Below, one piece after another: positions 3,767-64,000 of a stretch of 64,000 nt of DNA. Positions within the stretch are counted from its first letter, which is position 1. Each line of letters begins with the position of its first letter. Source of the DNA: Bacteroidales bacterium. GTDB lineage: Bacteria; Bacteroidota; Bacteroidia; Bacteroidales; UBA7960. The notes under the pieces were generated by a model. That model did not search any database. It saw only the letters and a program-made list of their open reading frames with translations, and was not told where the DNA came from. Where the stretch lies: NCBI GenBank assembly GCA_007118135.1, contig SKSE01000154.1:5465-69464 (forward strand). The letters are read 5' to 3'. A program made the translations under genes and the position numbers.

Positions 3767-4270
3767 ATGAATACCGGCATTAAAAACCTGAAAACAAGCA
3801 TCCTGATCAAAAGCTTTCTTTTGCGATTTGTTATATTCGCAGCAGGTTGGTTTGTATTGGTAGGCGGACGGCAACTTAGCGACATATTTTTCATGATTCT
3901 TTTTATAGTTGCTACTACTGTTATCAGCATTTATACAGTGCCCCCCGGGCAATGGCTTATTCGCCCCCTTGAGGTTGTCCGGTTTTTTCCCTATTTTCTT
4001 TTAATGGCTTTGCGTGGTGGCTGGGATGTGGCACATCGGGTATTCTTTCCAAAGATTCCCATTGACCCTGATTTTGTAACCATTGAACACGACCGAGATC
4101 CACGAAAAACTCTGGTTCTTGCCTGGGTAATAAGCCTGCTTCCGGGCACAGCCAGTTCCATCATCACCGAAGATAGTATAGTCGTACATGTTCTCGATAA
4201 AAAACTCCCTGTAATCGAAGAAATTATGGAATTACAAAACCGAATCAACAAAATGTTTGTGAGTGGCTAA
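3767..4270 (+). CDS. Na+/H+ antiporter subunit E (MnhE/MrpE)-like
   Basis: 167 aa with two N-terminal TM helices. The block LVLAWVISLLPGTASSIITEDSIVVHVLD matches the MrpE pattern ...ITLTPGT...L.VH..D. Confidence 0.65.
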   Translation: MNTGIKNLKTSILIKSFLLRFVIFAAGWFVLVGGRQLSDIFFMILFIVATTVISIYTVPPGQWLIRPLEVVRFFPYFLLMALRGGWDVAHRVFFPKIPIDPDFVTIEHDRDPRKTLVLAWVISLLPGTASSIITEDSIVVHVLDKKLPVIEEIMELQNRINKMFVSG

Positions 4271-30360: not shown

Positions 30361-30429
30361 TCGGTTAAGAACATGAAAGCTATGCGAATTTTATTTTAAA
30401 CTACTCTTTGTCAATTAGGATAATATCAT

Positions 30430-30437
30430 TATCTTTG
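30430..30437 (+). promoter_or_regulatory. -7 box TATCTTTG upstream of rpmG
   Basis: TAnnTTTG match 40 nt upstream of the ATG. Confidence 0.5.
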
Positions 30438-30476
30438 CGCTCCTGAAAATAAAACCTTAAAATACGTCAAAATAAA

Positions 30477-30665
30477 ATGGCAAAGAAAACGAAAGATGCA
30501 AGAGTGCAGGTGATTCTGGAATGCACTGAGCACAAGACCAGCGGGATGCCCGGAACTTCAAGGTACATAACCAAGAAAAACAAAAAAAATACTCCCGACA
30601 GGCTTGAACTTAAAAAGTACAATCCGATTTTAAGAAAAATGACTGTTCATCGCGAAATAAAATAA
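30477..30665 (+). CDS. rpmG: 50S ribosomal protein L33
   Basis: 62 aa. MAKK...[12 protein letters not shown]....[30 protein letters not shown] is the L33 pattern. Confidence 0.9.
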
Positions 30666-30673
30666 TTTGAATT

Positions 30674-30829
30674 ATGGCAAAGAAAGTAGTTGCAACACTG
30701 AAAACCGACACAGGTAAAGGATACGCAAAAGTTATCAGAATGGAAAAATCACCCAAAACCGGTGCTTACGCTTTTAAAGAAGATATCGTAGCTGCCGATA
30801 AGGTGAAAGAATATTTTGCTAAGAAATAA
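30674..30829 (+). CDS. DUF4295-family small protein (51 aa), not in the ORF track
   Basis: Hand translation: MAKKVVATLKTDTGKGYAKVIRMEKSPKTGAYAFKEDIVAADKVKEYFAKK. It lies 8 nt after rpmG, the usual Bacteroidota arrangement. Confidence 0.75.
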   Translation: MAKKVVATLKTDTGKGYAKVIRMEKSPKTGAYAFKEDIVAADKVKEYFAKK

Positions 30830-30891
30830 GCAAACTCATTTCTTATTTTATCAGCTCAGGAAGCCTGTTTCTCTTTCCTGAAGCAAGAAAA

Positions 30892-30928
30892 GACTTCCAA
30901 AGTTTTGAAACTTCCGGAAGTCTTTTTT
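30892..30928 (+). terminator. Terminator after the rpmG-DUF4295 operon
   Basis: GACTTCC...GGAAGTC stem followed by TTTTTT. Preceded by a second hairpin, CAGGAA...TTCCTG, at about 30855-30885. Confidence 0.65.
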
Positions 30929-30931
30929 CAT

Positions 30932-30939
30932 TAACTTTG
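30932..30939 (+). promoter_or_regulatory. -7 box TAACTTTG upstream of ftsY
   Basis: TAnnTTTG match 59 nt upstream of the ATG. Confidence 0.4.
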
Positions 30940-30997
30940 CTCACTGATAATTAGGGCAATACTTAAGATTAATCAAGGCTTATTAATATAAATTCCA

Positions 30998-40071: not shown

Positions 40072-42105
40072 CTACTCCTTAAGCCATTGGTCCAGCCACT
40101 TGAAAAATTCCCTTTGCCACAGAATACTGTTTTGCGGAGACAGTACCCAGTGGTTTTCTTCCGGATAAACAATAAGTCTGCTGGGAACTCCCTGCAACTG
40201 AGCCGCATTGAATGCCTGCATACCTTCTGAGAGAGGAACGCGGTAATCCTTGGCACCATGAATTACAAGAATTGGTGTATCCCAGTTACCCACAAACAAG
40301 TGTGGCGAGAAGTCGTAGCTATCCGGGCGATCTTCAGCCCAGTATGGACCGCCAATATCATGATTGGCAAAAAACATTTCTTCTGTAGTTCCATACCAGC
40401 TTTCGAAGTTGAACATTCCGCAGTGGGCAATGAAAGCGTTGAAGAGTCCGTTGTGATGGCCGGCCAGCCAGAAAACTGAAAATCCGCCGTAACTGGCACC
40501 TACAGCCCCAAGGCGATTCTCATCAATGAATGGTTCCTTACTCACTTCTTTTGCTGCAGCTAGCAGATCCTGCATATTTTGCCCGCCGTAGTCCTGGCTT
40601 ATCTGGTCGTTCCATTCCTGTCCGAAGGTGGGTAATCCTCTGCGGTTGGGGGCAATAATAATATAATCGTGTGCTGCCATGATCTGGAAATTCCAGCGGT
40701 AGGAGAAAAACTGGCTTACGGCGCTTTGGGGTCCGCCACCACAGTAAAGCAATGCAGGATATTTTTTATTGGAATCGAAGCCCGGAGGATAGATCACCCA
40801 CACCAGCATTTGCTTTCCGTCGGTGGTTTCAATCCAGCGTTGTTCCACATTTCCCATCTCAATTTTATCAAAAACAGGGCGGTTTACATCGGTAAGCTGC
40901 ACCTGTGTGCCATTGGCAGGATTTACCCTGAATATCTCAACGGGCGATGACATGCTCATTCGTTCTCCAACAAGATAATTACCCGCAATAGTCAGGGTGT
41001 TGTAGTTGTGCCAGCCATCGGTTACCTGACTGATCTGGCGATTTGCAATGTCGAGTTTGTACATTTGGTAGGTGGCATGATGCCCGCTGATGAAATAAAG
41101 ACTTCTGCTATCGGCTGTCCAGTTAAAACTTCCTGAACTCTGGTCGAAGCCTTCGGAATAATCAATCCAGCTTCCGTCGCTTAAATCCATAATAAGAATA
41201 CGATTCTTATCAGATTCAAATCCCGGGGTTTCCATGCTTTCCCATGCCATGTAGCGGCCATCGGGTGAAAAAACGGGATTACGATCGTAACCAGGGTTAA
41301 AGGGAGTAAGATTTGTGGTTTCACGGGTTTCCAGATTGTACAGATAAATATCGGAATTGGTGCTTACAGCCCTTTCCTTACCCACTTTTTTCTTGGCAGT
41401 ATAGGCCAGGGCGCGGCCATCGGGAGTCCAGCTGATCTGTCCGATGCCACCAAAGGGAGGCATGGGTGAATCCCAGGGTTCTCCTTCCATGATGTCGTAA
41501 TACCGTCCGATGCTACCATTATTATAAGGCGAAATGAAAATATGACTGTAGGAATAGTCGTGCCAGCGATCCCAGTGGCGGTACATCAGATCATCGTATA
41601 TCAAAACATTGGAAAGGGGCAGGTCGGGGTGCATATCGTGGGGATTTTCTTCAACCTTCACCCTTTTAGTGAAATACACATGCCGCATATCAGGACTGTA
41701 TTCAAAACCTGTAACACCACCGGCAACATTTGACACCTGCAGCGGATTGGAACCGTCAGGGTTCATTTCCCAGATCTGTACAGTTCCGGTTTTTGAACTC
41801 AGGTAGCCTATCTTTCTTCCATCAGGGCGCCACATCACATTAAACTCATTCTCCGGGCTGTTGGTAAGATTGCGGGGTGTACCGCCTTCAACAGGTACAA
41901 TGTATATATCCCGGCTGGCCCTGTTAGTTTCCACATCATAATGGGTTATGGTAAAGAGAACCTGCGTTCCATCGGGTGAAACCTGCATGCCGCCCACACG
42001 TCCAAATTCCCAAAGTGTTTCTGGTACCATAGCTTGTTTTTCAGACGAAACAGCTTGAAAAACAAAAAGTAATCCTGTTAAAATAACAATTGTAAATCGT
42101 TTCAT
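40072..42105 (-). CDS. S9-family serine peptidase (prolyl oligopeptidase / DPP-like) with N-terminal beta-propeller
   Basis: Signal peptide and PD40-like repeats (SPDG...). Nucleophile elbow GASYGGF. Distal H in VYPEENHW. Confidence 0.85.
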   Translation of the reverse strand: MKRFTIVILTGLLFVFQAVSSEKQAMVPETLWEFGRVGGMQVSPDGTQVLFTITHYDVETNRASRDIYIVPVEGGTPRNLTNSPENEFNVMWRPDGRKIGYLSSKTGTVQIWEMNPDGSNPLQVSNVAGGVTGFEYSPDMRHVYFTKRVKVEENPHDMHPDLPLSNVLIYDDLMYRHWDRWHDYSYSHIFISPYNNGSIGRYYDIMEGEPWDSPMPPFGGIGQISWTPDGRALAYTAKKKVGKERAVSTNSDIYLYNLETRETTNLTPFNPGYDRNPVFSPDGRYMAWESMETPGFESDKNRILIMDLSDGSWIDYSEGFDQSSGSFNWTADSRSLYFISGHHATYQMYKLDIANRQISQVTDGWHNYNTLTIAGNYLVGERMSMSSPVEIFRVNPANGTQVQLTDVNRPVFDKIEMGNVEQRWIETTDGKQMLVWVIYPPGFDSNKKYPALLYCGGGPQSAVSQFFSYRWNFQIMAAHDYIIIAPNRRGLPTFGQEWNDQISQDYGGQNMQDLLAAAKEVSKEPFIDENRLGAVGASYGGFSVFWLAGHHNGLFNAFIAHCGMFNFESWYGTTEEMFFANHDIGGPYWAEDRPDSYDFSPHLFVGNWDTPILVIHGAKDYRVPLSEGMQAFNAAQLQGVPSRLIVYPEENHWVLSPQNSILWQREFFKWLDQWLKE

Positions 42106-42343
42106 TCTTTAGTATTTAGGGTTTTTACTGATTGAATTTCTTTTTCAATGCGTAAAAATAGCAGGAAAAAATAAATCCGACATAATATAGCTGATGTTTT
42201 AGAATAAATGCATTGTTTAATTACCACAGATTCGGGCAATCTTTTTGCGTGACGGGGCCAATTCCCCGATATCCCCAACCGGGCGATACTGCGCTGCAAA
42301 ACCTTCATCTTTTTATTAATCCTTTACTGCGTGCAGCGCCTGT

Positions 42344-42351
42344 TATCTTTG
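42344..42351 (+). promoter_or_regulatory. Orphan -7 box TATCTTTG about 330 nt upstream of the HD-domain gene
   Basis: Exact TAnnTTTG match. No closer match before 42684. Confidence 0.4.
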
Positions 42352-42466
42352 TGCATGCAAAATTCTTCAAATGTTAAGCTCCTCCGGAGCAGTCGTAGTC
42401 AGACTAATCAGGCCATCCATAATATCCAGTTATTCAAAATAAACCAGGATTTAAAATAATTTACCC

Positions 42467-42482
42467 AGCCGCATCGCGGCGA
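42467..42482. repeat. Copy 1 of the 16-nt repeat AGCCGCATCGCGGCGA (core palindrome GCCGC-ATC-GCGGC)
   Basis: Read directly from the sequence. Identical to copy 2. Confidence 0.9.
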
Positions 42483-42520
42483 AAATATGGTAGAAATGAT
42501 ACGCCTTATAGCCCTTCCAA

Positions 42521-42536
42521 AGCCGCATCGCGGCGA
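42521..42536. repeat. Copy 2 of the 16-nt repeat AGCCGCATCGCGGCGA
   Basis: Read directly from the sequence, 54 nt after copy 1. Similarity extends to nAnTAT after the repeat. Confidence 0.9.
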
Positions 42537-42683
42537 CATTATCTGTTTGGCACAGGGCCATTTTGTTTGATCCCGTCGTTGCTGGGATAAAAGCGGATAA
42601 GGCCCGGCCAGTATAATCAGTACTGTGGTTACCCGCATATTTAAAAGAATCTCTTAACTTTACATTCGCTCTGAACAAAATAG

Positions 42684-43511
42684 ATGATTCTTATTATGAG
42701 GCTTTCTACACAGGCACAGCAGAAACTCAGTCTGCAATTAAGCACAAGTAACTCTCTGGATCAGGGGTTAGATGAGATTCATATGATTGCAGAAGAGTAT
42801 GCAGAAAAAACTACATCACCCGAATTTTTGAAAGAAGTAAGGAGGTTTTTCCTGGCAAATAATAACAGGAAATTCTTTTCGAAAGATATGCCGGCATCGG
42901 ATTTTCTGAAAGTGGACTCTGCCATGACCGAGAAAGTTATAAAACTTGCCATTGACAGGCATAAGAATGAGTTTCGCGATTCGGGTTTTCCTTACATGGC
43001 TCATGTGCTCAGTGCAGGATTTCTGCTTGCCAGGCTGGGGTTTTCAAAAGAAATTGTTTATTCTGCCATTCTGCATGATTCTTTTGAGGATTCGGGTGAT
43101 AAAAATAAAATTCTCAATGAACTTCATGCCATAAGTCCGGCAGTGGCATGGTATGTTTACAGTGTTTCCGGCACCGATACCAGGGATGCGGTGGAAAAAG
43201 ACCTGATGCTTCTGGAAAAGATCAATCAGTTTTCTGAACTTTCCGGAAGCGTATTTCCCAAAGCTATCAAATGTGCTGATGGTATTGCCAATTTATATGA
43301 CGTTGAGTTTATGCAGTCGCGGGACGGACGGAATGCCCAAGAACGCAGACTCAGATTCATCAATCAGACCGAAAATGAAGTTCTTCCCTTTGCCAGGGAA
43401 GTGGATACTGCAGGTGTGATCAGGGTGAAGAACAAAGGTGAGGTCTTTTCGCTGGAGGAATATGCTAAAGATACCATAGATTTTAAATTGAGTCTGATAC
43501 AGGGCGGATAA
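42684..43511 (+). CDS. HD-domain protein, RelA/SpoT-type (p)ppGpp-hydrolase-like
   Basis: FPYMAHVLSAGFLLARLG....SAILHDSFEDSG matches the SpoT/Mesh1 hydrolase HD block (LLHDxxEDT). The N-terminal ~90 aa are not conserved-looking and the start is uncertain (42684, 42696 or 42783). Confidence 0.65.
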   Translation: MILIMRLSTQAQQKLSLQLSTSNSLDQGLDEIHMIAEEYAEKTTSPEFLKEVRRFFLANNNRKFFSKDMPASDFLKVDSAMTEKVIKLAIDRHKNEFRDSGFPYMAHVLSAGFLLARLGFSKEIVYSAILHDSFEDSGDKNKILNELHAISPAVAWYVYSVSGTDTRDAVEKDLMLLEKINQFSELSGSVFPKAIKCADGIANLYDVEFMQSRDGRNAQERRLRFINQTENEVLPFAREVDTAGVIRVKNKGEVFSLEEYAKDTIDFKLSLIQGG

Positions 43512-44077
43512 TGATAAAATACCCGACTACCATGCGAATCAGGGTAAATGAACATATTGTACTTAAAGAATTAAGCCGCGGGGATGTAGCTGATATTTTT
43601 CATACCATAAACACCCAGCGATCCTATCTTGGTGCATGGCTTCCCTTTGTTGCTTACACCAAAGAACTCACGGATACTGAAGCCTTTGTTGAATCAGTGC
43701 TGCATGCACCTGATAAAAAACGTGAGTATGTTTTTGTTATCAGGTACGATGGTGAGTTTGCCGGTATTATCGGATTTAAGGATACGGACAAAGTAAACCG
43801 CAAAACGGAAATAGGTTATTGGTTGTCAGAACATTTTCAGAAAAAAGGTATTATTACCTTATGCTTGAAGAAACTCCTGCAACTCGCTTTTAAAGTATTG
43901 AATATCAATCGTGTGCAAGTCCGTTGTGCAGTTGGAAATACTTCCAGCAGCAATATTCCCAAACGTCTTGGATTTAAACAGGAAGGTATTGAAAGAGAAG
44001 GAGAGCTATTAAGCAACGGTAGTTTCGCCGACCTTGAAGTTTACAGTTTGCTGAAATCTGATTTTCATAATTCCTGA
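43511..44077 (+). CDS. GNAT N-acetyltransferase, RimJ/RimL-like
   Basis: 188 aa. Motif EIGYWLSEHFQKKGIITLCLKKLLQLAF...N..S..I..RLGF..EG. Its ATG shares one base with the HD gene stop (TAATG). Confidence 0.75.
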   Translation: MIKYPTTMRIRVNEHIVLKELSRGDVADIFHTINTQRSYLGAWLPFVAYTKELTDTEAFVESVLHAPDKKREYVFVIRYDGEFAGIIGFKDTDKVNRKTEIGYWLSEHFQKKGIITLCLKKLLQLAFKVLNINRVQVRCAVGNTSSSNIPKRLGFKQEGIEREGELLSNGSFADLEVYSLLKSDFHNS

Positions 44078-49995: not shown

Positions 49996-50318
49996 GGCAA
50001 AAATAAGAAATACCGCTAATTTTAAAACAGGATTTAGTACGATTTTATTACCGAATGACCAAATATTTATGTGGTTTTTTGGGGATATAATGATATAATC
50101 AGGTCTGATTCAGACTTAAACATTAGTTGTTAATATCACTTTAATTAATATTTAAACTCAATTTAAATTAGACTTTGAAGTTTATTAACCAGATTTTTTC
50201 ATGTACATTTAAAAATCTGATAATTGACAATATAATTTTGACTTTTAATTAAATAATAGATTGTAAGCTTTTTGTCAAAAATGTTTACAATTAATTTCAA
50301 ATATTAAATAAATAATTA

Positions 50319-50326
50319 TAGATTTG
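50319..50326 (+). promoter_or_regulatory. -7 box TAGATTTG upstream of the oxidoreductase operon
   Basis: TAnnTTTG match 57 nt upstream of the first ATG, in a 387-bp AT-rich gap. Confidence 0.45.
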
Positions 50327-50382
50327 CCCTAATAATGAATCTTTAGTTTAAAATCTATCATCACCAAAAATAAAATTATATA

Positions 50383-50598
50383 ATGGCAAAACGAGGAGAT
50401 GTTGTCATCGACATAGAAAAATGCAAAGGTTGCGAGGTTTGCATCTCGGCCTGTCCGCAGGAAGTGCTTGCGCTCGCTCCCCAGGTAAACAACAAGGGAT
50501 ATCATTATGCCATAAAGGTAAATTCTGATTGTACAGGATGCGCCAATTGTGCAATTGTATGCCCCGATGCTGTAATTACTGTTTACAGGGAGAAATAA
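50383..50598 (+). CDS. 2-oxoacid:ferredoxin oxidoreductase delta subunit (2x[4Fe-4S] ferredoxin)
   Basis: Motifs CKGCEVCISACP and CTGCANCAIVCP. Confidence 0.85.
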   Translation: MAKRGDVVIDIEKCKGCEVCISACPQEVLALAPQVNNKGYHYAIKVNSDCTGCANCAIVCPDAVITVYREK

Positions 50599-50644
50599 AA
50601 ACCTTTAGAAAAAAGATTTTCAGTTATAAAAATAACGCATAACA

Positions 50645-63152: not shown

Positions 63153-64000
63153 TTAATCCAGCAAAGTAACCCAGCCATGTGTATCAGGTTCTTCACCATA
63201 TTGAATAGCTTGTAATTTGTTGTAAAGCTTTTCAGATACCGGGCCTGCTTTTCCATCTTTGCAGAATTCATAAGTATGACCGCTTTCCCGGTCTACAATT
63301 TTTTTAATGGGTGAAATGATTGCTGCAGTACCACAAGCTCCTACTTCTTCAAAATCAGCCAGTTCTTCAACTGCGACAGGTCTGCGTTCTACTTCCATAC
63401 CCATGTCCTGAGCCAATTGCATAAGACTCTTATTGGTTATTGATGGCAAAATGGAATCAGACTTTGGAGTTATATATTTATTGCCTTTAATTGCAAAAAA
63501 GTTTGCCGGTCCAGCTTCATCTATATATTTTTTTTCTTTTGCTTCAAGGAATAGTACTGCTGCAAAACCTTCTGCTTTGGCTCTTTCACTGGCTTTCAGG
63601 CTTCCTGCATAATTTCCACCTACTTTTATAGCTCCTGTACCCAGGGGTGCTGCCCTGTCAAAATCTCTTACAATCTGAATGGTTACCGGGTTAAATCCTT
63701 CTTTGAAATAGGGGCCCACAGGTCCTACAAATACCATAAAAAGATATTCTTTTGCAGGGTTAACACCTACCTGAACACCAGTGCCGATGAGTAAAGGTCT
63801 GATGTAAAGTGCAGCTCCATGTCCGTAAGGCGGTACATATTTCTCATTAAGTTTTACTGCTTCAACCACCAATTTGTAGAAGATGTCATCAGGTACTTCT
63901 GCCATAAGAATACCCTGCGATGACTGGCGCATGCGTGCCGCATTGTCCTTCCAGCGGAAAAGTCTGATTTTTCCATCTTTTCCTCTGTAGGCTTTCATTC
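63153..64000 (-). CDS. ilvE: Branched-chain-amino-acid aminotransferase (N-terminus outside window)
   Basis: Motifs LKAYRGKDGKIRLFR, GTGAIKVGGNYA, FFAIKGNKYITP, GACGTAAIISPI. The frame is open to the window end. Confidence 0.85.
   Translation of the reverse strand, partial: MKAYRGKDGKIRLFRWKDNAARMRQSSQGILMAEVPDDIFYKLVVEAVKLNEKYVPPYGHGAALYIRPLLIGTGVQVGVNPAKEYLFMVFVGPVGPYFKEGFNPVTIQIVRDFDRAAPLGTGAIKVGGNYAGSLKASERAKAEGFAAVLFLEAKEKKYIDEAGPANFFAIKGNKYITPKSDSILPSITNKSLMQLAQDMGMEVERRPVAVEELADFEEVGACGTAAIISPIKKIVDRESGHTYEFCKDGKAGPVSEKLYNKLQAIQYGEEPDTHGWVTLLD

Follow-up and report, generated by a model that had tools for sequence, protein, structure and literature searches.

A hairpin repeat doublet of a Bacteroidota-wide, Y1 gene-associated family in a variable intergenic gap of a Bacteroidales genome

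The closest described systems to the element considered here are of two kinds. Repetitive extragenic palindromes (REPs), together with their composites, the bacterial interspersed mosaic elements (BIMEs) and the inverted REP pairs (REPINs), are short multi-copy extragenic palindromes with covarying stems and a GTAG-containing motif. In Gammaproteobacteria such as Escherichia coli and Pseudomonas they form REPtrons with a REP-associated tyrosine transposase (RAYT), a small Y1 (HUH) gene bracketed by inverted units, and they build composite mosaics in intergenic hotspots. The IS200/IS605 insertion sequences (IS608, ISDra2), of which the palindrome-associated transposable elements (PATEs) are miniature derivatives, have a Y1_Tnp transposase and small subterminal hairpins, with the left and right ends on one strand; the right-end cleavage site of IS608 sits ~8-10 nt 3′ of its hairpin. 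Here we analyse a stretch of 64,000 nt from a Bacteroidales bacterium (contig SKSE01000154.1 of assembly GCA_007118135.1, positions 5,465 to 69,464), referred to below as the window, in which a 578-nt gap (42106-42683) between divergent S9 peptidase and HD_4 genes holds a direct doublet of hairpin units. The doublet belongs to a repeat family that is dispersed in other Bacteroidota genomes and resembles both kinds of system. Its parts are as follows; loci from other sequences carry the prefix L.

42463..42495, + strand: unit a, stem 42468-72 with 42476-80, loop ATC, tail GAAAATATGGTAGAA
42521..42542, + strand: unit b, stem 42522-26 with 42530-34, loop ATC, tail GACATTAT
42467..42542, + strand: direct doublet with a 54-nt period, a ~76-nt block that aligns at 72-81% to doublets elsewhere

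The core of each unit is one copy of a perfect 16-nt direct repeat, AGCCGCATCGCGGCGA, at 42467-42482 and 42521-42536 on the + strand. The preliminary description of this DNA had reported the repeat and its 54-nt period, and both stand; each copy contains GCCGC-ATC-GCGGC. Just two copies occur in the window at up to three mismatches, against a mean of 0.09 in shuffled sequence (1 of 100 shuffles reached 2). The covariance model R1 matches unit a over its full length (43.7 bits, E = 1e-10) and unit b at 42522-42542 (27 bits, E = 1.2e-5). Run without filters on the window, the model returned these two as the only credible matches. It found no minus-strand unit in the gap, and the window doublet is direct, not an inverted REPIN. 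When the gap was compared by BLAST with its own window, the twin repeat alone was recovered; chance matches of 14-15 nt fall within coding sequence at 63559 and 25814.

The family to which these units belong is defined by a unit of ~30 nt, A-GCCGC-AT(N)-GCGGC-GA-NNN-TAT-GGTAG, in which a 5-bp GC-rich stem and a 3-nt loop are followed by a conserved single-stranded tail. The extended consensus is aAAA-GCCGC-AT(A/C)-GCGGC-GACAT-TAT-GGTAG-C, with an invariant A after A-rich sequence 5′ of the stem and GGTAG ~9 nt 3′ of it. A scan of 596 Gb, one genome per species, with the pattern AGCCGCATNGCGGCGANNNTAT (18 specified bases) returned at least 119 stretches where ~17 chance matches were estimated. 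The matches listed come mostly from metagenome-assembled genomes (MAGs) of Bacteroidota, namely Bacteroidales, Prolixibacteraceae, Paludibacter, Draconibacterium, Mariniphaga, Muribaculaceae, Saprospiraceae, Chitinophagales and Lewinellaceae, and also include one Thermoguttaceae MAG; matches in GC-rich Actinomycetota and Proteobacteria look like chance. Under this strict pattern a single genome holds 5-9 loci among the matches listed, and GGTAG, which was not part of the search pattern, follows 81 of the 136 listed pattern matches (2.1 expected). Dozens of copies at Saprospiraceae, Chitinophagales and Bacteroidales loci match unit b over 22-24 nt with 100% identity, and doublets that align to the window doublet are present in L025, L031, L049, L089, L091, L109, L120, L123 and others. 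A literal sequence search of the literature gave one irrelevant match.

The stem is maintained by compensatory change. In units picked by their flanks only, the five stem positions are 94-97% paired; shifted registers are mostly 2-35% paired, and a few reach 82-95% because the stem is GC-repetitive. Non-canonical stems among the flank-picked units are fully paired in 24 of 39 cases, and 21 of those 24 are changed in both arms. Across 81 units, 97.3% of stem cells are paired, four of the five pairs show changes on both sides, and 24 compensatory cells are found compared with 2.6 in shuffles (0 of 500 shuffles reach 24); slid registers collapse. The suggestion, made from the window alone, that the palindromes are 5-bp-stem triloop hairpins is thus borne out by the 81 members, 97% paired. 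The units are also extragenic: only 10.5% lie in long stop-free stretches, which span 83% of the bases.

Spacing is equally regular. Neighbouring units on the same strand show a sharp distance peak at 48-55 nt (88 pairs), so that the 54-nt period in the window is the canonical doublet spacing of the family. Within doublets unit b regularly loses similarity straight after TAT and unit a runs on into GGTAG; unit b of the window lacks GGTAG, like many terminal units. Triplets and longer arrays exist (L047, L025, L120), and inverted unit composites occur in Saprospiraceae and Chitinophagales. There, four units are built into a palindromic element of ~260 nt with 19-nt terminal inverted repeats TAACGTGAGTTTTGGATAG (L022, L046, L090, L105, L110 and others), some copies of which are without the left terminal repeat. 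This element resembles miniature inverted-repeat transposable elements (MITEs), but the window and Bacteroidales copies have no terminal repeats, and the hairpin unit is the part common across orders.

Two further observations concern the wider distribution of the unit and its placement next to genes. At seven or more loci of the Thermoguttaceae MAG (Planctomycetota; L034, L038, L055, L060, L079, L118, L130) the hairpin core is joined to a tail GACCCTAT(T/G)GTAGCC and then to a CCCGGGG...CCCCGGG hairpin, which points to horizontal spread or to a related family outside Bacteroidota. At L125 (~7600), L088 (~6450), L019 and L128 translation of the next gene seems to start at an ATG in the tail (ATTATGG) or just after GGTAGC, so that units can border on the 5′ ends of genes or form part of them.

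The family is physically associated with a transposase gene. In L031 and L037, open reading frames (ORFs) of 153-156 aa lie between inverted units and match Pfam Y1_Tnp (PF01797) with E = 2.6e-25 and 3.4e-23. The NCBIfam IS200/IS605 model NF033573 is matched at 72.9 bits (cut-off 55), and the NCBIfam RAYT model NF047646 is not passed (27.7 bits, cut-off 80); the Y motif is YI[IM]NQExHH. Searches with tblastn revealed homologues of 57-67% identity, with inward-pointing units on both sides, in 10 loci that had been found by DNA pattern alone; the usual layout, seen where the Y1 gene has intergenic DNA on both flanks, is a direct doublet or triplet on each side of it, pointing inward. In a reciprocal test, three homologues were picked by protein search alone, one of them from a MAG labelled Ignavibacteriae, and all three have units next to the gene (E = 1e-8 to 1e-4), in one case directly after the stop codon. 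L138 and L144 have units on either side of the gene; L141 has them only downstream, since its Y1 start directly adjoins a restriction gene. The stems in L141 are GCTCC/GGAGC and GCCCC/GGGGC, and the tail is unchanged. All 13 Y1 genes examined have adjacent hairpin units, and within the loci retrieved the units far outnumber the Y1 gene. A homologue, P0154, sits in one conserved gene neighbourhood on four contigs from several samples and on three similar contigs, a constancy that suggests a resident rather than a hopping gene. At L144 1700-3300, a block of ~397 nt with four units beside the Y1 gene is tandemly duplicated upstream and partly repeated downstream.

The six aligned Y1 proteins (153-156 aa) all share [DN]H[VI]H (N for D in two), WQ and YI[IM]NQExHH. 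TnpA_Y1 subclass 1.2 is defined by DH[IV]H, WQ and Y---Q--HH, has a median length of 148 aa and is found in Bacteroidetes or Cyanobacteria (Quentin et al., 2018; PMC6006769). The proteins can therefore be placed in this subclass by motif, not by the HMM of Quentin et al., and their length and Bacteroidetes distribution agree. The nearest solved structures are the IS200-type TnpAs 2F4F, 2XM3 and 2A6M; the E. coli RAYT was not matched.

Comparison of the gap among relatives bears on what the doublet does locally. Three MAGs of uncultured Bacteroidales (GCA_007136235.1, GCA_007124675.1 and GCA_003560815.1) have contigs that encode the same HD protein at 100% identity, and their gap matches that of the window base for base. 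Orthologous loci of seven further lineages were collected through HD homologues at 74-90% identity. The genes and the parts of the gap are:

40072-42105, - strand: S9 peptidase gene, divergent from the HD_4 gene
42106..42200, unstranded: S9-proximal part of the gap, outside the repeat, at 83-87% identity in L004, L011 and L014
42201..42639, unstranded: lineage-variable insert, a mosaic of short GC-rich repeat modules, absent from L014-16
42640..42683, + strand: conserved HD-proximal block beginning TTnAAAAGAATCTCTTAACTTTAC, kept in all 8 lineages, to 74% HD protein identity
42684-43511, + strand: HD_4 domain gene (Pfam HD_4, E = 6.6e-5, under the gathering score), a neighbour outside the element

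The distance upstream of HD varies widely among these lineages:

L014-16, HD identity 82%: 149 nt
L004, HD identity 90%: 323 nt
L017, HD identity 74%: 326 nt
L010, HD identity 79%: 520 nt
Window, HD identity 100%: 578 nt
L007, HD identity 82%: 594 nt
L011, HD identity 89%: 990 nt
L013, HD identity 86%: ~1,230 nt

The shortest gap, that of L014-16, consists of the equivalent of window 42106-42200 fused directly to 42640-42679. Similarity to L007 extends over 42106-42263 (76%). The interval 42201-42639 is occupied by other sequence in L004, L011 and L017, and module B (described below) alone is retained from it in L007 and L010. Only L013 shares 42257-42585, at ~78% identity; there both hairpins keep their stems, with loops ATT and ATG, and the period is 58 nt versus 54 nt in the window. 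When the last 100 nt before the start codon are aligned, conservation starts exactly at 42640 in all eight lineages (TTnAAAAGAATCTCTTA(A/C)CTT...), and the ~45-nt block from there to the HD start is the only part conserved in all of them. Because 42201-42639 is absent from L014-16 and conservation begins only at 42640, this interval is dispensable for HD. It contains the twin repeat, the promoter-like box and the foldable segment to which the preliminary description had ascribed local regulation; that idea does not survive their lack in L014-16 and the complete or near-complete replacement of the interval elsewhere. The doublet probably has no dedicated role in controlling HD or S9.

Taken together, these data make it likely that each of the twin 16-mers is the hairpin core of one unit and that the two units, in tandem, form a solo, non-autonomous REP-like doublet of a Bacteroidota-wide family whose members are recognised as single-strand hairpins by a Y1 enzyme. 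If it works as IS608 TnpA and E. coli TnpA(REP) do, such an enzyme would recognise the units as hairpins in single-stranded DNA, reading the stem by its shape and the tail (GA-NNN-TAT-GGTAG) by its sequence, as a guide or cleavage sequence. In the genome of the window the enzyme would be encoded elsewhere and would spread or maintain the units in trans.

Several observations weigh against this interpretation. The 64-kb window holds one doublet and no Y1 homologue (tblastn with the Y1 protein gave no match in the window or in L001-L017), and dispersal is seen in other genomes; the preliminary description had itself raised the prospect of a dispersed REP/MITE-like element, which holds at the level of the family and not yet for this genome. 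There is no clean insertion boundary or filled-versus-empty site, and the doublet travels with module B, hairpin hp2 and module A in L013, L091 and L122, so the mobile entity could exceed the doublet. A 28-mer specific for the spacer and, separately, the junction of unit b with module A each had 0 matches in a metagenome contig collection, negatives that are uninformative because the collection is without L013, a JGI metagenome contig in which the junction is present. The tie between unit and Y1 gene is one of proximity only, and two hallmarks of REP systems are lacking: the hairpin has no GT[AG]G as its 5′ foot, and the protein scores below the cut-off of the NCBIfam RAYT model. Finally, the doublet may have a secondary effect on HD expression at the level of RNA or DNA topology, as some E. 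coli REPs do.

A refinement of this reading, which we hold as a tentative alternative, is that the doublet is a miniature IS200/IS605-type transposon with hairpin a as its left end and hairpin b as its right end on one strand; both excision and insertion would proceed through a single-stranded circle, and the right boundary of the element would fall immediately past GACATTAT. The placement of the hairpins on one strand at a distance tightly held at 48-55 nt would fit such an element, as would the end of unit b similarity right after TAT where unit a continues to GGTAG, and the protein is closer to IS200-type TnpA (2F4F, 2XM3, 2A6M) than to the E. coli RAYT. However, the Y1 gene is bracketed by inverted units and not by left and right ends on one strand, triplets and longer arrays occur (L047, L025, L120), and neither empty or filled sites nor target duplications were seen from which the ends could be defined.

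It is unlikely, and more so than the miniature transposon, that the doublet is an inert relic, decaying and without current activity or a partner enzyme in this genome. The presence of one doublet and no Y1 gene in 64 kb and the degenerate state of the adjacent module A are what a relic would predict, but both hairpins are perfect, unit a scores 43.7 bits, equal to the best family members, and L013 keeps both hairpins with changes in the loops only, amid ~22% divergence.

The same segment might instead act in cis as RNA, within a long HD leader or as a small RNA whose triloop hairpins serve stability, termination or protein binding. The features on which this would draw are:

42344..42351, + strand: TATCTTTG, a match to the Bacteroidetes -7 consensus (TAnnTTTG), judged a chance match
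42548..42610, + strand: local long hairpin of nested pairings, a predicted fold whose arms are not kept in L013 or L122
42655-42662, + strand: near-consensus -7-like box TAACTTTA in the conserved block, TACCTTAG in three lineages

Stem covariation supports a hairpin in some single-stranded nucleic acid, the units are oriented as HD, and predicted folds of the region are somewhat more stable than those of shuffled sequence: z = -2.66 for 42358-42683, and -33.8 kcal/mol with z = -2.16 for 42537-42640, in which GGGCC pairs with GGCCC and ATCCC with GGGAT. Some E. coli REPs affect mRNA decay. The nested complementarities of the preliminary description do exist, but L013 and L122 preserve neither CACAG/CTGTG nor ATCCC/GGGAT. 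Its orphan promoter fares worse: the box is present at the position given, yet TANNTTTG has 72 matches in the window where shuffles predict 77 ± 10, which puts one match in a 578-nt gap at chance level, and the box reads GATCATTC in L013, while six of the seven related lineages compared lack it. A scan for sigma-70-type promoters, uninformative for a Bacteroidetes genome, gave five promoter-like sites (2.6 expected) and no terminators. No RNA family is recognised: an E-value scan of 41900-42900 against Rfam gave nothing beyond two weak matches, both to families of eukaryotes at E about 5, and at the gathering score nothing was found in the whole window or over the units in 16 related loci. The segment is moreover missing from most orthologous loci, and the units occur in both orientations relative to neighbouring genes and inverted around the transposase gene, which together leave a cis-acting RNA very improbable. 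The real HD promoter, with a short leader, may instead lie in 42640-42683, which we infer to be the HD control region.

Least credible of all is the proposal that the two perfect palindromes, 54 bp apart (about five helical turns) between divergent genes, are twin operators at which a dimeric factor regulates S9 and HD: the sites are absent from six of seven related lineages though HD is kept and S9 is adjacent too in four, the motif adjoins unrelated genes at hundreds of extragenic sites in other orders, and compensatory half-site changes beside an asymmetric conserved tail fit a hairpin and not a symmetric duplex operator.

The REP-like doublet is not the only repeat in the gap, which, to judge from the alignments, is a hypervariable intergenic hotspot that has gathered several unrelated palindromic repeat modules. 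The further modules in the window are:

42262..42339, + strand: module B, a separate recurrent module with inverted arms GCGCTGCA (42291-42298) and TGCAGCGC (42332-42339)
42376..42392, + strand: small hairpin module AAGCTCCTCCGGAGCAG (GCTCC-TCC-GGAGC), unchanged in L013 and nearly so in L091
42543..42577, + strand: degenerate module A (consensus CTGTTAGTGACGGGGCCACTTnnnGTGACCCCGCC); L013 and the two L122 copies have an intact A after unit b

Module B has copies of 73-85% identity in L007, L010, L013, L091 and L122; their distance from HD is not constant, and some have unrelated surroundings. Module A stands alone in L007, and 42521-42575 is 82% identical to L122 144-198. The module combination of 42262-42585 recurs in L091 and, as a single-unit variant, twice in L122. 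Neighbours in L091 and L122 are an RHS-type toxin (recognised by eye), a 1,079-aa protein weakly similar to the window S9 peptidase and, nearby, a tRNA gene; no HD homologue lies close to the combination in either locus. Related gaps carry further palindromic repeats, among them GGGACAGG-N6-CCTGTCCC, GAGACGCGCC...GCGCGTCTC and CCCCGGGT-TGAT-ACCCGGGG.

Two repeats deserve separate mention. GGGACAGG-TCAAGC-CCTGTCCC is a second dispersed hairpin, absent from the window, that is found in related gaps and at an unrelated intergenic site of L010 (L007 3698-3719; L010 868-889 and 3681-3702; L011 3786-3807; L012 546-567; L013 1514-1535); at the orthologous position, L007 and L010 carry it with the loop in opposite orientations. 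In the gap of the 90%-identity relatives, the place of the window doublet is taken up by a third palindromic repeat, GAGACGCGCCG-NNAT-GCGCGTCTC (L004 ~3790-3830; also on the upstream side of module B in L007 and L010). Several families of short repeats have thus accumulated at this site, in a way that resembles a BIME mosaic.

Variation extends to the genes on both sides. In L010 (2988-3480) and L013 (468-1027) a ParE/YoeB-type toxin-antitoxin pair replaces the S9 peptidase upstream of HD, which fits rearrangements at a hotspot. In the window HD is followed by a GNAT acetyltransferase gene (43511-44077) whose start overlaps the HD stop codon; this gene is missing after HD in L004, L011 and L017, which have short unannotated ORFs or nothing instead, and the downstream side of HD is therefore variable too. 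The HD start itself is probably the ATG at 42696 (MRLS...) and not that at 42684 (MILIMRLS...), because the orthologues (269-272 aa) align from MRLS.

The gap is also, as first described, the largest gene-free one in the window. Two stretches without an ORF of at least 100 aa are longer (49996-50644 and 30361-30997), but both hold small ORFs, recognised by eye from translations only: ribosomal protein L33 and a 51-aa ORF in 30477-30829, and a 71-aa 4Fe-4S ferredoxin in 50383-50598. The GC content across 42200-42650 is coding-like (45-50%), which had raised the idea of a pseudogene remnant; this was rejected, since the GC stems from the GC-rich palindromic modules. Coding was likewise ruled out: the short ORFs of the gap have 0 Pfam matches, the indels relative to L013 (4, 8 and ~39 nt) are not all multiples of three, and a 92-aa ORF of L013 is not conserved.

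How the family relates to described systems can now be stated more closely. Protein subclass, unit anatomy and doublet architecture all differ from described REP/RAYT systems. The protein is of class 2 (Y---NP) there and of class 1 (Y---Q--HH) here; the GTAG-containing motif forms a 5′ foot there, and here GGTAG lies ~9 nt 3′ of a hairpin with a 5-bp stem and triloop; and the REPIN is an inverted pair, whereas the basic multimer here is a direct doublet with a period of ~52 nt. The conserved single-stranded segment ~8-10 nt 3′ of the hairpin recalls IS608, as the transposase and its nearest structures recall IS200/IS605 elements in general, but here inward-pointing sets of units on opposite strands flank the gene. 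Subclass 1.2 is entered as 'REP: no' in the table of Quentin et al. (2018; PMC6006769), and yet 13 of 13 genes here have units. For subclass 2.6 and class 3 the same survey describes 'atypical secondary structures' on the flanks of the gene that recur at other genomic sites (Quentin et al., 2018; PMC6006769). These are similar in being weak short hairpins without the canonical 5′ GT[AG]G foot, and subclass 2.6 is found mainly in Bacteroidetes; they differ in their proteins (NH[LIV]H and YIH[QN]NP, ~179 aa, for subclass 2.6; Y----Q, ~178 aa, with a CnGA foot, for class 3), and the flanking motifs of both are unlike the unit described here. The unit may be a previously unrecognised cognate repeat of subclass 1.2, REPtron-like across Bacteroidota and as far as the Ignavibacteriae-labelled MAG, with a similar unit in Thermoguttaceae, and distinguished by direct doublets ~52 nt apart and a distal 3′ GGTAG. 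We regard the chances that this claim of novelty is right as evenly balanced, because our search of the literature was limited.

For the locus itself, the striking palindromes are repeat DNA, which removes a false lead and leaves the 45-nt block next to HD as the likely control region. More generally, the unit offers an annotation marker for common Bacteroidota intergenic repeats that break up assemblies and can be mistaken for regulatory sites. Knowledge of REP/RAYT systems comes almost wholly from Proteobacteria, and a hairpin unit with covariation, fixed spacing and gene bracketing provides a testable substrate for an uncharacterised HUH enzyme. If the unit is indeed the cognate repeat of subclass 1.2, a domesticated-looking, repeat-tending enzyme would exist inside class 1, the IS200 class, and the family would be an intermediate between IS200 insertion sequences and REP/RAYT systems.

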